Source of the DNA: a virus
Taxonomy: Duplodnaviria > Heunggongvirae > Uroviricota > Caudoviricetes
Direction: 5' to 3' (one strand)
DNA length: 15,275 nucleotides
IMG/VR virus record: IMGVR_UViG_2778261031_000003
The notes under the pieces are model-generated. The model was not told the origin of the DNA and ran no database searches. It worked only from the letters and a program-made list of their open reading frames with translations. This document shows, one piece after another, positions 2,404-10,789 of the stretch. Each line of letters opens with the position of its first letter. Position 1 is the first letter of the stretch. The position numbers were made by a program, and so were the translations under genes.

Positions 2404-3758
<1,355 letters not shown>

Positions 3759-3921: not shown

Positions 3922-3952
3922 TGCTCTTAAAAATTAAGCCCTGAAGAAGGGC
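3922..3952 (+). promoter_or_regulatory. nutL (boxA variant tgctcttaaaaattaa, boxB gccctgaagaagggc at 3938-3952)
   Basis: Near-exact match to recalled lambda nutL; boxB is a 5-bp stem with a GAAGA loop. Confidence 0.85.
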
Positions 3953-4110: not shown

Positions 4111-4434
4111 ATGGATGCACAAACACGCCGCCGCGAACGTCGCGCAGAGAAACAGGCTCAATGGAAAGCAGCAAATCCCCTGTTGGTTGGGGTAAGCGCA
4201 AAACCAGTTAACCGCCCTATTCTCTCGCTGAATCGCAAACCGAAATCACGAGTAGAAAGCGCACTGAATCCGATAGACCTTACGGTGCTGGCTGAATACC
4301 ACGAACAGATTGAAAGCAACCTGCAACGTATTGAGCGCAAGAATCATCGAGTTTGGTATAGCAAGCCAAGTGAGTTCGGTATAACTTGTCAAGGAAGACA
4401 AAAGGTTAAAGGGAAATCCATTCCATTGGCATGA
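4111..4434 (+). CDS. N: Antitermination protein N (107 aa)
   Basis: MDAQTRRRERRAEKQAQWKAANPLLVGVSAKPVNRPILSLNRKPKSRVESALNPIDLTVLAEYH... matches recalled lambda N, including the arginine-rich N-terminal motif. The track ORF start at 4033 is an upstream extension. Confidence 0.9.
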   Translation: MDAQTRRRERRAEKQAQWKAANPLLVGVSAKPVNRPILSLNRKPKSRVESALNPIDLTVLAEYHEQIESNLQRIERKNHRVWYSKPSEFGITCQGRQKVKGKSIPLA

Positions 4435-4442
4435 GGTACGTA

Positions 4443-5312
4443 ATGAAGAAAATTGATTACAAGTCCATACCAAAACCAATAGACTCAGCATCAGAGCGAA
4501 AAAAACACAAAAAAGAGGCTGAAAAATTAGCAAATTATATCAGTTTTATTAGAAACAATGCTCACGGCGATGGCGACAGGAAGTTGCTTTCAGATGCCCG
4601 GACCCAAGCGTTCAGCATACTTCGTAAGCAGATGCAATATCGTCTTCATCCAGGCTACATAATTGAAATTCGCCCGACTGAAAGACAATTGTTCTTATTA
4701 AACTCTGTCTTTGACTTTGTAAACGTAGTTGGAGATCTTATCGACAGGTCTGTAGATAAGGCTCCTGATACAAATAGTTTTCTTCTAACAAATAAAGAAT
4801 ACTTATATGGTAAATTTGGTATAAACGGATGGCAAAAATATGTACGATTCTTACGTGCATTCGTTGATGCGTATAAAAATTCCGACATGATTTATACATA
4901 TTTGCCTGGTGGTAATAATTGTACGCTTTCGGCAGACAATAGAATATTCATACCTATACTTGGTCTTGGGCTGATTAATGCAGTAAATGAAAGAGATGTT
5001 ATAATTGTTAAGCAGTGGCGAAAGCATGAGGGATATAGATATCTGCCATGCTTTGATATATTAAAAATACAGAATAAATTCTATGTGAAAATTAAATATA
5101 AAGAAGATGTTTTCTTCCTCAGAAAAAACAAAGATCTTTTACAAGAACTTTCTGGGACAATAGATGTCATCGTAGGTTCTAGGTTTATAAAAGAACTGAA
5201 AGAAAGCAGGTCTTTCTCTCGTGTAGAGATAAGCGAGTCAGAGTTATGGGGTATATCAAATAATCCTGTAAACCACGCTCACCAACGAAATCCAAACAAA
5301 AAGTGGTCATAA
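4443..5312 (+). CDS. Hypothetical protein (about 290 aa), AT-rich cargo gene A between N and cIII; candidate phage-exclusion/defence protein
   Basis: Long ORF with gaggt SD 7 nt upstream of the ATG at 4443. An alternative start at 4431 overlaps the N stop as ATGA. Very AT-rich and lysine/asparagine/isoleucine-rich; no lambda counterpart recognised. Confidence 0.7.
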   Translation: MKKIDYKSIPKPIDSASERKKHKKEAEKLANYISFIRNNAHGDGDRKLLSDARTQAFSILRKQMQYRLHPGYIIEIRPTERQLFLLNSVFDFVNVVGDLIDRSVDKAPDTNSFLLTNKEYLYGKFGINGWQKYVRFLRAFVDAYKNSDMIYTYLPGGNNCTLSADNRIFIPILGLGLINAVNERDVIIVKQWRKHEGYRYLPCFDILKIQNKFYVKIKYKEDVFFLRKNKDLLQELSGTIDVIVGSRFIKELKESRSFSRVEISESELWGISNNPVNHAHQRNPNKKWS

Positions 5313-5869: not shown

Positions 5870-5941
5870 GCGCGGCGTTACCGCATACCAATAACGCTTC
5901 ACTCGAGGCGTTTTTCGTTATGTATAAATAAGGAGCACACC

Positions 5942-6106
5942 ATGCAATATGCCATTGCAGGGTGGCCTGTTGCTGGCTGCCCTTCCGAATCTTTACTTGA
6001 ACGAATCACCCGTAAATTACGTGACGGATGGAAACGCCTTATCGACATACTTAATCAGCCAGGAGTCCCAAAAAATGGATCAAACACTTATGGCTATCCA
6101 GACTAA
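5942..6106 (+). CDS. cIII: CIII protein (54 aa; FtsH/HflB inhibitor)
   Basis: Manual translation gives [54 protein letters not shown], matching recalled lambda CIII. Below the ORF-track size cutoff; aggag SD upstream. Confidence 0.85.
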   Translation: MQYAIAGWPVAGCPSESLLERITRKLRDGWKRLIDILNQPGVPKNGSNTYGYPD

Positions 6107-6239
6107 ATTCACTATCGCCACTTTTATTGGCGATGAAAAGATGTTTCGTGAGGCCGTCGACGCTTATAAAAAATGGATATTAATACTGAAACTGAGATCA
6201 AGCAAAAGCATTCACTACCCCCCTTCCCTGTTTTTCTAA
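6075..6239 (+). CDS. kil: Kil (host cell-division inhibitor), about 54 aa here
   Basis: [43 protein letters not shown]... matches recalled lambda Kil; starts 31 nt before the cIII stop, as in lambda. The track ORF start at 5949 is an out-of-frame extension over cIII. The C-terminus appears a few residues longer than my recollection of lambda Kil. Confidence 0.7.
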
Positions 6240-6589
6240 TCAGCCCGGCATTTCGCGGACGATATTTTCACAGCTATTTCAGGAGTTCAGCCATGAACGC
6301 TTATTACATTCAGGATCGTCTTGAGGCTCAGAGCTGGGCGCGTCACTACCAGCAGATCGCCCGTGAAGAGAAAGAGGCAGAACTGGCAGACGACATGGAA
6401 AAAGGCCTGCCCCAGCACCTGTTTGAATCGCTATGCATCGATCATTTGCAACGCCACGGGGCCAGCAAAAAAGCCATTACCCGTGCGTTTGATGACGATG
6501 TTGAGTTTCAGGAGCGCATGGCAGAACACATCCGGTACATGGTTGAAACCATTGCTCACCATCAGGTTGATATTGATTCAGAGGTATAA
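6173..6589 (+). CDS. gam: Gam (RecBCD inhibitor, 138-aa long form; short form would start at the internal MNAYY)
   Basis: [74 protein letters not shown]... matches recalled lambda Gam. Confidence 0.9.
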
Positions 6590-6594
6590 AACGG

Positions 6595-7380
6595 ATGAGT
6601 ACAGCACTCGCAACGCTGGCTGGGAAGCTGGCTGAACGTGTCGGCATGGATTCTGTCGACCCACAGGAACTGATCACCACTCTTCGCCAGACGGCATTTA
6701 AAGGTGATGCCAGCGATGCGCAGTTCATCGCATTGTTGATCGTCGCCAACCAGTACGGCCTTAATCCGTGGACGAAAGAAATTTACGCCTTCCCTGATAA
6801 GCAGAACGGCATCGTTCCGGTGGTGGGCGTTGATGGCTGGTCCCGTATCATCAATGAAAACCAGCAGTTTGATGGCATGGACTTTGAGCAGGACAATGAA
6901 TCCTGCACATGCCGGATTTACCGCAAGGACCGTAATCATCCGATCTGCGTTACCGAGTGGATGGATGAATGCCGCCGCGAACCATTCAAAACCCGCGAAG
7001 GCAGAGAAATCACGGGGCCGTGGCAGTCGCATCCCAAACGGATGTTACGTCATAAAGCCATGATTCAGTGTGCCCGTCTGGCCTTCGGATTTGCTGGTAT
7101 CTATGACAAGGATGAAGCCGAGCGCATTGTCGAAAATACCGCATACACTGCAGAACGTCAGCCGGAACGCGACATCACTCCGGTTAACGATGAAACCATG
7201 CAGGAGATTAACACTCTGCTGATTGCCCTGGATAAAACATGGGATGACGACTTATTGCCGCTCTGTTCCCAGATATTTCGCCGCGACATTCGCGCATCGT
7301 CAGAACTGACACAGGCCGAAGCAGTGAAAGCTCTTGGATTCCTGAAACAGAAAGCCTCTGAGCAGAAGGTGGCTGCATGA
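6595..7380 (+). CDS. bet: Bet (Red-beta single-strand annealing protein, 261 aa)
   Basis: [72 protein letters not shown]... matches recalled lambda Bet. Confidence 0.95.
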
Positions 7381-8057
7381 CACCGGACATTATCCTGCAG
7401 CGTACCGGGATCGACGTGAGAGCTGTCGAACAGGGAGATGATGCGTGGAACAAATTACGACTCGGCGTCATCACGGCTTCAGAAGTTCACAATGTGATAG
7501 CAAAACCCCGCTCCGGTAAAAAGTGGCCTGACATGAAAATGTCCTACTTTCACACCCTGCTGGCTGAGATTTGCACCGGTGTGGCTCCGGAAGTTAACGC
7601 TAAGGCGCTGGCCTGGGGAAAACAGTACGAGAATGACGCCAGAGCCCTGTTTGAGTTTACTTCCGGCGTGAATGTTACTGAATCCCCGATCATCTATCGC
7701 GACGAAAGTATGCGCACCGCCTGCTCTCCCGATGGTTTATGCAGTGACGGCAACGGCCTTGAGCTGAAATGCCCGTTTACCTCCCGGGATTTCATGAAGT
7801 TCCGGCTCGGTGGTTTCGAGGCCATAAAGTCGGCTTACATGGCCCAGGTGCAGTACAGCATGTGGGTGACACGAAAAGATGCCTGGTACTTTGCCAACTA
7901 TGACCCACGAATGAAGCGTGAAGGCCTGCATTATGTCGTGGTTGAGCGGGATGAAAATTACATGGCGAGTTTTGACGAGATGGTGCCGGAGTTCATCGAA
8001 AAAATGGACGAGGCACTGGCTGAAATTGGTTTTGTATTTGGGGAGCAATGGCGATGA
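7377..8057 (+). CDS. exo: Exo (lambda exonuclease / Red-alpha, 226 aa)
   Basis: [64 protein letters not shown]... matches recalled lambda Exo; 4-nt overlap with the bet stop. Confidence 0.95.
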
Positions 8058-8236
8058 CGCATCCTCACGATAATATCCGGGTAGGCGCGATCACTTTCGT
8101 CTACTCCGTTACAAAGCGAGGCTGGGTATTTCCCGGCCTTTCTGTTATCAGAAATCCACTGAAAGCACAGCGGCTGGCTGAGAAGATAAATAATAAACGG
8201 GGAGCTGTATGCACAAAGCATCTCCTGTTGAGTTAA
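8054..8236 (+). CDS. Small lambda-like early-left ORF (60 aa; orf60a-like by position and size)
   Basis: ATGA overlap with the exo stop (8054-8057); [60 protein letters not shown]. Size and position fit the lambda ORF immediately downstream of exo; name assignment is from memory. Confidence 0.6.
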
Positions 8237-8400
8237 GAACGAGCATTGAGATGGCACATAGCCTCGCTCAAATTGGAGTCAGGTTTGTGCCAATACCAGT
8301 AGAAACAGACGAAGAATTTCATACGTTAGCCGCATCCCTTTCACAAAAGCTGGAAATGATGGTGGCGAAAGCAGAAGCAGATGAGAGAGACCAGGTATGA
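8209..8400 (+). CDS. Small lambda-like early-left ORF (63 aa; orf63-like)
   Basis: 63-aa ORF overlapping the previous ORF by 28 nt, the same arrangement I recall for lambda orf60a/orf63. Confidence 0.55.
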   Translation: MHKASPVELRTSIEMAHSLAQIGVRFVPIPVETDEEFHTLAASLSQKLEMMVAKAEADERDQV

Positions 8401-8480
8401 CAACCACTGAATGCATTTTTCTGGCAGCGGGCTTCATATTCTGTGTGCTTATGCTTGCCGACATGGGGCTTGTTCAATGA
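8397..8480 (+). CDS. Hypothetical 27-aa hydrophobic peptide (MTTTECIFLAAGFIFCVLMLADMGLVQ)
   Basis: ATGA overlaps at both ends (8397-8400 with the upstream stop, 8477-8480 with the downstream start) suggest translational coupling; predicted single transmembrane helix. Very short, so coding status is uncertain. Confidence 0.35.
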   Translation: MTTTECIFLAAGFIFCVLMLADMGLVQ

Positions 8481-8692
8481 CACCTCAGCAAGAAAACGCC
8501 CTTCGCAGTATTGCCCGTCAGGCTAATTCTGAAATCAAAAAAGCCAGACAGCAGTTTCCGGATAAAAACGTCGATGACATTTGCCGTAGCGTACTGAAGA
8601 AGCACCGCGAAACGGTAACGCTGATGGGATTCACACCGACTCATTTAAGCCTGGCGATCGGCATGTTGAACGGCGTCTTTAAGGAACGGTGA
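8477..8692 (+). CDS. Small lambda-like early-left protein (71 aa)
   Basis: MTPQQENALRSIARQANSEIKKARQQFPDKNVDDICRSVLKKHRETVTLMGFTPTHLSLAIGMLNGVFKER; ATG at 8477. The track ORF start at 8411 is an extension. Family assigned by position in the b-region, from memory. Confidence 0.55.
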   Translation: MTPQQENALRSIARQANSEIKKARQQFPDKNVDDICRSVLKKHRETVTLMGFTPTHLSLAIGMLNGVFKER

Positions 8693-8711
8693 ACATGAAA
8701 AGCAAAATCAT

Positions 8712-8740
8712 CAGGGAGCTACAGGCTCCTTTTTTATTAT
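8712..8740 (+). terminator. Intrinsic terminator-like hairpin plus T-run
   Basis: ggagc tacag gctcc followed by ttttttatt (about 8714-8740), downstream of the small-ORF chain. Confidence 0.5.
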
Positions 8741-8790
8741 TCGCATTTACCCTCAAGCGTATTAACCAACAATTCAGGGATTAATGAAAG

Positions 8791-9009
8791 ATGGCAGACA
8801 TCATTGATTCAGCATCAGAAATCGAAGAATTACAGCGCAATACAGCAATAAAAATGCGTCGTCTGAACTACCAGACTGTATCCGCAACTCATTGTTGTGA
8901 GTGTGGCGATCCGATAGATGAGCGAAGACGCCTGGCTGTTCAGGGTTGTCGGACTTGTGCGAGTTGCCAGGAGGAGATCGAACTTAAGAACAAACAATGG
9001 GGACTGTGA
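8791..9009 (+). CDS. TraR/DksA-family C4-type zinc-finger protein (72 aa)
   Basis: Two CxxC pairs (CCECGDPIDERRRLAVQGCRTCASCQ) with the spacing and short acidic N-terminal helix typical of phage/plasmid TraR-like proteins. Confidence 0.7.
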   Translation: MADIIDSASEIEELQRNTAIKMRRLNYQTVSATHCCECGDPIDERRRLAVQGCRTCASCQEEIELKNKQWGL

Positions 9010-9056
9010 TGGCCTCAAAGCAGCAAATTTCAACATCGTCCAACTGAGGTGTAAAA

Positions 9057-9335
9057 ATGTTCAGAATCATTTTTCCTAACACCTGGTACGTCGACCACCA
9101 CGGCACTCCCTGCAAAATCCTGCGTTCTACCCACAACAAAGTTCACTACATCCGAAAAGGCAGAACATGTATCGCCAGCATGTTCCGCTTTAATCATGAC
9201 TTTGAACCTGTGAATAAAGCTGATGCAGATCGGATAGCAGAAGAGATCGAAACGGCAGAACACATTAAGAAGTTACGTGACATGCGTTCAAAAAGCAGAG
9301 GTAACCATGGAATCATACAGCCTCACACTCGATGA
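9057..9335 (+). CDS. Hypothetical protein (92 aa) upstream of xis
   Basis: ORF ending 29 nt inside the xis start; no recognisable family by eye. Confidence 0.4.
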   Translation: MFRIIFPNTWYVDHHGTPCKILRSTHNKVHYIRKGRTCIASMFRFNHDFEPVNKADADRIAEEIETAEHIKKLRDMRSKSRGNHGIIQPHTR

Positions 9336-9678
9336 GGCCTGTCAGTTTCTTAAGATATCCAGACCAACCGCCACCAACTGGATACGAACAGGCCGCCTAC
9401 AGGCAACACGTAAAGATCCAACCAAGCCAAAATCTCCTTACCTCACAACACGGCAAGCCTGCATTGCGGCGCTTCAGTCTCCGCTGCATACTGTCCAGGT
9501 GAGCGCGGGTGATGGCATAACAGAGGAAAGAAAATGTCACTCTTCCGCAGAAATGAAATATGGTATGCCTCGTATTCGCTCCCGGGCGGGAAACGAATTA
9601 AGGAATCTCTTGGCACAAAGGACAAGCGGCAAGCTCAGGAGTTGCACGACAAGCGAAAAGCAGAACTCTAGCGAGTAG
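9307..9678 (+). CDS. xis: Excisionase (P22/DLP12-type Xis)
   Basis: [70 protein letters not shown]... matches recalled P22-type Xis; ATG at 9307 preceded by the track ORF extension from 9277. The frame runs 145 nt into the int reading frame before its TAG at 9676-9678. Confidence 0.75.
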
Positions 9679-10697
9679 AAAAGCTAGGGGATTTACCTGA
9701 TGTCACTTTTGAAGAGGCCTGCCTAAGATGGCTTGAGGAAAAAGCTGATAAAAAATCTCTCGATTCAGATAAAAGCCGGATTGAGTTCTGGCTTGAACAT
9801 TTTGAGGGTATAAGGCTTAAAGATATCTCGGAGGCAAAGATTTACTCTGCTGTAAGCAGAATGCATAACAGAAAGACGAAAGAAATATGGAAACAGAAAG
9901 TTCAGGCCGCCATCAGGAAAGGTAAAGAACTGCCTGTTTATGAACCAAAGCCAGTATCAACTCAGACAAAGGCAAAGCATCTTGCCATGATAAAGGCCAT
10001 TCTCCGTGCTGCAGAACGCGACTGGAAGTGGCTGGAAAAAGCGCCTGTCATCAAGATACCAGCGGTCAGAAACAAGCGAGTCAGATGGCTGGAAAAGGAG
10101 GAAGCAAAACGCCTTATTGATGAGTGCCCCGAACCACTGAAATCTGTCGTCAAGTTTGCGCTGGCAACTGGTCTGAGAAAGTCGAACATCATAAATCTGG
10201 AATGGCAACAAATCGACATGCAGCGACGAGTTGCCTGGGTGAATCCAGAAGAGAGCAAATCAAACCGCGCCATTGGTGTGGCGCTGAACGATACCGCCTG
10301 TAAAGTGTTGCGTGATCAAATAGGCAAGCATCACAAATGGGTGTTTGTACATACCAAGGCGGCTAAGCGAGCAGATGGAACATCAACGCCTGCGGTCAGG
10401 AAGATGCGCATCGACAGCAAGACATCATGGCTATCAGCTTGTCGTCGTGCAGGAATTGAAGATTTCCGTTTCCATGACCTCAGACACACCTGGGCAAGCT
10501 GGCTGATTCAGTCAGGCGTCCCATTATCAGTGCTTCAGGAAATGGGCGGATGGGAGTCCATAGAAATGGTTCGTAGGTATGCTCACCTTGCGCCTAATCA
10601 TTTGACAGAGCATGCGAGGAAAATAGACGACATTTTTGGTGATAATGTCCCAAATATGTCCCACTCTGGAATTATGGAGGATATAAAGAAGGCGTAA
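9534..10697 (+). pseudogene. int: Tyrosine integrase, P22/DLP12 (IntD)-type, 388 codons with an in-frame TAG at codon 46 (9669-9671)
   Basis: Translation from the ATG at 9534 gives [45 protein letters not shown][28 protein letters not shown]..., continuing in the same frame into the 278-aa track ORF (9861-10697), which holds the catalytic C-terminus ([10 protein letters not shown]...VRRYAHL). Recalled P22 Int has W at the position of the stop. Confidence 0.8.
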
Positions 10698-10712: not shown

Positions 10713-10789
10713 TGGCGCGCCCTGCAGGATTCGAACCTGCGGCCCACGACTTAGAAGGTCGTTGCTCTATCCAACTGAGCTAAGGGCGC
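10713..10789 (-). tRNA. argU: tRNA-Arg (anticodon UCU), argU-like; prophage integration target
   Basis: Reverse complement reads GCGCCCTTAGCTCAGTTGGATAGAGCAACGACCTTCTAAGTCGTGGGCCGCAGGTTCGAATCCTGCAGGGCGCGCCA: cloverleaf-compatible, anticodon loop CT-TCT-AA, 3' CCA encoded. The int stop lies 16 nt from the tRNA 3' end. Confidence 0.9.

Follow-up and report, generated by a model that had tools for sequence, protein, structure and literature searches.

What does the short open reading frame (ORF) at positions 8791–9009 encode, and can its product still play a role in the prophage that carries it? We addressed this question using the whole 15,275-nucleotide stretch of DNA, hereafter the window. 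The ORF lies on the + strand, begins with ATG, ends with TGA, and encodes a protein of 72 amino acids (MADIIDSASEIEELQRNTAIKMRRLNYQTVSATHCCECGDPIDERRRLAVQGCRTCASCQEEIELKNKQWGL). Reading the sequence upstream, we noted AGGGA at 8776–8780 (+), ~11 nt 5′ of the ATG, as a possible weak Shine-Dalgarno motif. Taken together, the profile, alignment, and conservation evidence makes it very probable that this ORF is the orthologue of lambda orf73, residing in a lambda-like E. coli prophage at the DLP12 site (argU), and that its product is a TraR-family C4 zinc-finger protein that binds RNA polymerase and acts as lambda Orf73 does. Coding in the other strand or in another frame was rejected, as neither the antisense ORF at 8830–9036 (−) nor the overlapping ORF at 8918–9079 (+) matched a PHROG family. 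A non-coding RNA reading was rejected as well: an Rfam scan of the entire window at the gathering threshold found nothing in 8700–9060, its only matches over the whole window being the cIII thermoregulator and argU.

The family assignment comes from three profile matches. The protein scored 37.3 bits against Pfam PF01258 (Prokaryotic dksA/traR C4-type zinc finger; gathering score 24.9, E 2.8e-9), matched PHROG 54 (“DksA-like zinc-finger protein”) over its full length (residues 1–70, E 3.6e-26), and covered positions 1–64 of the 64 in TIGR02419 (phage/conjugal plasmid C-4 type zinc finger protein, TraR family; E 2e-14). The last of these is a near miss by curated standards, since the 53.9 bits obtained with this model (C4_traR_proteo) lie below the NCBI cut-off of 59.7. 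Judged by sequence comparison, these matches and the match to lambda Orf73 are far beyond chance. A preliminary description of this DNA had proposed a TraR/DksA-like zinc-finger protein, to be checked by a search against the DksA/TraR zinc-finger profiles; that search returned significant matches, and the PF01258, TIGR02419, and PHROG 54 results bear the proposal out. Narrower models did not fit. With 25.8 bits against a cut-off of 108, the protein fell far short of the F TraR equivalog NF010268; membership was rejected on this curated cut-off, and the 72-aa protein is a homologue of F TraR and not its equivalent. The YbiI model NF008243 gave 42.8 against a cut-off of 96.

A phmmer search of PDB sequences gave its best matches to E. 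coli YbiI (2kgo) and to F-plasmid TraR as it occurs in complexes with RNA polymerase (5w1s, 6n57, and others). F TraR could be aligned end to end with the protein. In this alignment the DxxDxA motif near the N-terminus (D3-I-I-D6-S-A8) places D3, D6, and A8 on D3, D6, and A8 of TraR, the arginine pair R46/R47 falls on the equivalent R48/R49, and C35, C38, C56, and C59 fall on C37, C40, C58, and C61. These four cysteines form a putative zinc site, C35-x2-C38-x17-C56-x2-C59, in the canonical TraR spacing. The protein carries six cysteines in all (35, 36, 38, 53, 56, and 59); the additional C36 and C53 align with TraR positions 38 and 55, and lambda Orf73 has extra cysteines at the matching positions. 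The four-cysteine arrangement given in the preliminary description is thus right for the canonical spacing and wrong for the total, and the spacing, which it had named as a possible point of failure, is identical to that of TraR. The size is also that of the TraR family (~70–75 aa, with a lone N-terminal helix): 72 residues align end to end with the 73 of TraR, and a low-confidence structural model places a helix at residues 5–28.

The same residues stand out when homologues are compared. In an alignment of 48 sequences, with homologues 61–94% identical, D3, D6, A8, C35, C56, and E64 are invariant, and C38, C59, R46, R47, and C53 are kept in at least 90%. The proportions for the motifs are similar in a set of 93 full-length homologues, 89 and 91 of which retain R46 and R47, respectively. 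AlphaFold2, run with the 48-sequence alignment, gave a model of low confidence (pLDDT 64.8, pTM 0.32), which shows a long helix at 5–28, a short helical turn at 44–47 amid coil, and a helix at 57–69 that includes the invariant E64. This predicted succession of helix, turn in coil, and helix is consistent with the three-part TraR layout and is not decisive. When the model was compared with the PDB using Foldseek, TraR (6n57_M; E 0.018, TM 0.39) came first and YbiI second, followed by DksA and DksA2, none of them significant. For lambda Orf73, a published AlphaFold model reached a pLDDT of 93 and an RMSD of 4 Å to RNA polymerase-bound TraR, a deviation ascribed to differing helix angles in the free form, and the protein has also been modelled on TraR within RNA polymerase (PMC8614690).

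Orthology with lambda Orf73 is indicated by both identity and position. The lambda RefSeq record NC_001416 leaves orf73 unannotated; a 73-aa ORF (MADIIDSASEIEELQRNTAIKMRRLNHQAISATHCCECGDPIDERRRLVVQGCRTCASCQEDLELISKQRGSK) is found there between ea22 and orf61, on the complement of about 30396–30617. The window protein is 87% identical to it over 71 aa (E 3e-47), and its gene likewise follows exo-orf60a-orf63-orf61 in the pL operon. The two genes are separated by 10 synonymous and 9 non-synonymous codon differences; the latter fall at residues 27, 29, 30, and 49 and in the C-terminal tail (62–70), and none hits a motif. The 130 nt 5′ of the gene are 97% identical to lambda, including a terminator-like hairpin described below. 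The gene is also widespread. The protein is 100% identical to that of Shigella phage SfI, relatives are encoded in 513 phage records, and DNA similar to 8700–9060 occurs in 3317 of 5426 complete E. coli genomes (~61%), in up to five places per genome. RefSeq names the protein “TraR/DksA family transcriptional regulator” (WP_000763385.1). E. coli HKUOPY1 may serve as an illustration, with copies in different lambdoid prophages: one lies at argU (9092–9310 of the compared stretch), and a second (genome 418772–421772) lies beside a frameshifted integrase, near an annotated 112-nt tRNA-Ser.

The lambda orthologue has been characterised experimentally. The purified protein binds RNA polymerase, and at rRNA and r-protein promoters lambda Orf73 is as efficient an inhibitor as TraR, in vitro and in vivo, and ppGpp is not needed for this inhibition; induced Orf73 complements a dksA-null strain and slows host growth (PMC9239242). 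Phage yield after induction is 3–4 fold higher with Orf73, and this effect is abolished by D3A/D6A (PMC9239242). Three tested host promoters, thrABC, argI, and rpoH P3, are activated weakly if at all, and the tested lambda lytic promoters are unaffected (PMC9239242). The mimicry of TraR may be only partial. In the cryo-EM structures of TraR with RNA polymerase that this study cites, the N-terminal helix of TraR occupies the secondary channel and brings DxxDxA close to the active site, its zinc domain contacts the rim helices and β′ Si3, and its C-terminal helix contacts β Si1 (PMC9239242).

All of these contact motifs are found in the sequence of the 72-aa protein, the C-terminal helix as a prediction, and on this ground we assign it the same mechanism. 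In the proposed model, the protein would consist of a single N-terminal helix with DxxDxA, a small zinc globule built on four cysteines, and a helix at the C-terminus, and it would bind RNA polymerase directly, not DNA. The N-terminal helix would enter the secondary channel, bringing D3 and D6 close to the active site, R46/R47 in the zinc domain would touch the rim helices and β′ Si3, and the C-terminal helix would touch β Si1. By homology, the protein is expected to act without ppGpp. Following prophage induction, orf73 would be transcribed with delayed-early timing as part of the N-antiterminated pL operon, and its product would slow host growth and divert resources, raising phage yield a few-fold. 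The molecular reading offered in the preliminary description, that of TraR-type binding to RNA polymerase, thus finds support by analogy in the motifs and in the experiments on the 87%-identical lambda protein (PMC9239242).

The physiological role of Orf73 is disputed. Another group has described a lower yield together with effects that favour lysogeny (cited in both PMC8614690 and PMC9239242). The same biochemistry could therefore serve mainly a pro-lysogenic or cell-cycle function, blocking the initiation of host replication or biasing the choice between lysis and lysogeny, in place of increasing lytic yield. We regard this as a serious alternative, if a rather unlikely one. Deletion of orf73 lowers post-infection host survival and lysogenisation efficiency (literature summarised in PMC8614690), earlier work implicates orf73, ea22, ea8.5, and orf55 in blocking host replication initiation (cited in PMC9239242), and dnaA is inhibited when Orf73 is highly expressed (PMC9239242). 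However, the effect on dnaA mRNA is weak or absent at single copy, and both D3A/D6A and an in-frame deletion cut phage yield 3–4 fold after induction (PMC9239242). Moreover, the partners ea22, ea8.5, and orf55 of lambda are all missing from the window. With ea22 absent, the “conserved block” orf60a-orf63-orf61-orf73-ea22 of the literature is incomplete here.

The operon around the gene resembles that of lambda. A nutL boxB with the exact lambda sequence (GCCCTGAAGAAGGGC; 3938–3952, +) marks where the pL operon of orf73 begins; it lies ~4.85 kb upstream of orf73 and on the same strand. N (PF11438; 4033–4434, +) and the cIII thermoregulator RNA (Rfam RF01804, 88.5 bits; 5929–5987, +) also lie upstream on this strand. 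They are joined by gam (6173–6589), bet (6595–7380), and exo (YqaJ/lambda exonuclease; 7377–8057, +), the last being the upstream boundary of the exo-xis region. Homologues of orf60a (DUF1317; 8048–8236, +), orf63 (DUF1382; 8209–8400, +), and orf61 (long form; 8411–8692, +) then lead to orf73, so that the order gam-bet-exo-DUF1317-DUF1382-orf61-orf73 is the same as in lambda. Directly 3′ of orf73, in the place of lambda ea22/ea8.5, is a DUF4222 gene (9057–9335, +), which is the one gene between orf73 and an excisionase-like HTH ORF (phrog_2907; 9307–9678, +) with intD beyond; the location next to the xis-int module that had been described at the outset is therefore correct. In the other direction, cI (2725–3357) has both its HTH and S24 peptidase domains, and a nutR boxB, again with the exact lambda sequence, is found at 2364–2378 (−), with cro, cII, O, P, and ren beyond. 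The lambda-type antitermination and cIII control elements look intact.

Immediately upstream of orf73, in the interval that separates it from orf61, is a terminator-like hairpin of 8 pairs (8713–8731, +). It reads AGGGAGCT-ACA-GGCTCCTT, followed by a TTTTTTATTATT tail (−10.2 kcal/mol, z = −1.9), lies 60 nt 5′ of the ATG, and is identical in lambda, where we know of no named terminator at the equivalent position. Several terminator-like hairpins are found between pL and orf73. A crude consensus scan for sigma-70-like promoters found none on the + strand in 7900–9800. Given the hairpin 5′ of the gene, orf73 would be reached mainly by N-antiterminated transcripts from pL, and we infer that it is a delayed-early gene of that operon. 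This agrees with the published timing in lambda, where Orf73 is made from pL 5–20 min after induction (PMC9239242).

Several other features of this region deserve mention. A GC-rich hairpin of 9 pairs (8118–8140, +) lies within the DUF1317 coding sequence of the orf60a homologue; its position presumably corresponds to that of lambda tL3 near 31262. The orf61 homologue matches PHROG 303 (phrog_303) over its full length, as in Stx phages. RefSeq gives a 216-nt version of this gene in related strains, and lambda's own orf61 is truncated by a frameshift, the remainder being readable in another frame (3213–3395 of the compared lambda stretch). For the long form, the literature predicts a homeodomain-like fold. 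Overlapping the stop codon of N is an ORF of 293 aa (4431–5312, +) with a full-length match to PHROG 12139 (unknown function) and no Pfam match; its last 20 residues weakly match the Nun-like transcription termination factor family (E 4.3e-5). Finally, a 158-aa ORF (3282–3758, +) directly follows cI in the slot of lambda rexA/rexB. It matched only phrog_2651 (unknown function) and could be an exclusion or defence gene.

The intD-type integrase gene of the prophage (9534–10697, +) carries an in-frame amber codon, TAG at 9669–9671, which changes W46 to a stop; E. coli PSS-10 reads TGG at these positions, and this is the sole difference across 9280–9900. The element ends at argU (tRNA-Arg tct; 10713–10789, −) and adjoins fimZ and the sfm fimbrial genes, which is the DLP12 site. 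Probably, then, intD is now a pseudogene, with the prophage probably locked at argU. Because of the amber codon, the prophage may be unable to excise, and a full lytic cycle from this copy of orf73 is uncertain; the identity of orf73 is unaffected. One could thus imagine that an intact orf73 merely hitch-hikes in a decaying, locked-in prophage and has no meaningful expression. Besides the amber codon, this would fit with the progressive decay seen at the argU site in related strains, such as PSS-10, in which gam is truncated and bet/exo are lost, and with the several terminator-like hairpins that separate pL from orf73. We nevertheless find this distinctly improbable, as the reading frame is unbroken and its product matches the phage SfI copy exactly, and cI, N, nutL, nutR, cIII, gam, bet, and exo all look intact. 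Since the immunity and early-left regions look intact, SOS induction should still lead to N-antiterminated transcription from pL across orf73, even in a prophage that fails to excise. By analogy with lambda, we infer that this copy would behave as lambda Orf73 does and would continue to be expressed from this prophage.

Two further points of the preliminary description concern the location and nature of the gene. It had been placed in the accessory slot of the b region. In lambda, the b region is the segment between J and attP; the gene studied here is located between exo and xis, which puts it in the exo-xis region of the early-left pL operon, on the strand of nutL and N and 3′ of both, and the b-region placement was rejected. 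The gene had also been called a host-modulating moron. A moron in the strict sense has its own promoter and terminator and is expressed from the repressed prophage. This was rejected too, as the crude scan found no promoter-like site nearby on the + strand and the single terminator-like hairpin close to the gene precedes it, although “host-modulating, non-essential accessory gene” is a fair description. That the gene is such a strict moron, benefiting the lysogen (the word moron having come from the preliminary description), or that its product is a sequence-specific DNA-binding regulator, as its small zinc finger and the zinc-finger/homeodomain-like fold of the exo-xis protein Ea8.5 (PMC8614690) might suggest, is barely credible, because TraR-family proteins act without DNA binding (PMC9239242), all the RNA polymerase contact motifs are conserved, the 7900–9800 interval offers no promoter-like site on the + strand, the terminator-like element is upstream and not downstream, and lambda Orf73 is a pL product with the timing given above.

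Within the reading of the protein as an Orf73-type factor, the two extra cysteines differ from each other. C53 is retained in 86 of the 93 full-length homologues; C36 is retained in only 31 of them and is replaced elsewhere by E, A, I, S, or V. The counterpart of C53 is a valine in both F TraR and YbiI; in the present protein, C53 yields the run C53-x2-C56-x2-C59. This pattern in the alignments suggests that C53 is under selection in the Orf73 clade. The authors of the lambda study remarked on the extra cysteines, drawing no difference in conservation between them, and suggested both as a possible cause of the weak activation by lambda Orf73 (PMC9239242). As C53 is kept here and is a valine in F TraR and YbiI, it could be a selected functional feature of Orf73-type proteins, serving as an alternative zinc ligand or as a redox-sensitive switch that tunes the contact of the globular domain with β′ Si3. 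We put this forward as a speculative idea that is improbable as it stands; if true, it would explain why lambda Orf73 inhibits promoters yet shows little or no activation of the host promoters tested. The conservation of C53 but not C36 across the clade is the sole point of this analysis that is mildly new.

Indeed, the gene is already known: it is annotated in RefSeq, is identical in phage SfI, and has a lambda orthologue characterised both biochemically and genetically (PMC9239242). As a discovery it matters little, and the value of the work lies in a clean annotation. From a biological perspective, a widespread prophage gene would, by analogy with lambda, encode a protein that mimics the stringent response without requiring ppGpp. 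Expression of orf73 could be turned on by SOS induction, possibly even in prophages that are no longer able to excise.

The protein can also be set beside the closest known systems. E. coli YbiI (2KGO) is the best PDB sequence match for the zinc-finger core (E 1.2e-5), but it is a chromosomally encoded protein of 88 aa and the match is limited to residues 31–67. DksA has the C4 zinc-finger domain PF01258 in common with the protein, and it too uses the secondary channel to bring a DxxDxA motif to the RNA polymerase active site; however, DksA is longer (~150 aa), has this motif at the end of a coiled coil, and depends on ppGpp, whereas the protein described here has 72 aa and a single predicted N-terminal helix. 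Assignment to DksA proper was rejected on length; the motif lies at residues 3–8, and a coiled coil cannot fit. F-plasmid TraR belongs to the same length class, with a three-part layout like the one predicted here and with matched D3/D6/A8, C4 site, and R48/R49, and it provides the mechanistic template of ppGpp-independent binding in the secondary channel. It differs in sequence (identity ~30%; 30% in the Foldseek structural alignment), lacks the two extra cysteines, and is encoded in a tra operon, whereas this copy of orf73 belongs to a phage pL operon. In addition, unlike TraR, lambda Orf73 does not activate promoters of its own element (PMC9239242). Lambda Orf73 itself agrees with the window protein in all six cysteines, in the DxxDxA, ExxRL, and RR motifs, and in the place of its gene within the pL operon. 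The differences are a length of 73 aa against 72 here, nine residues (27, 29, and 30 in the linker, 49, and the tail at 62–70), and the neighbourhood: in lambda, ea22 is downstream of orf73, whereas here that place is taken by the DUF4222 gene, in a prophage that sits at argU with a DLP12-type intD.
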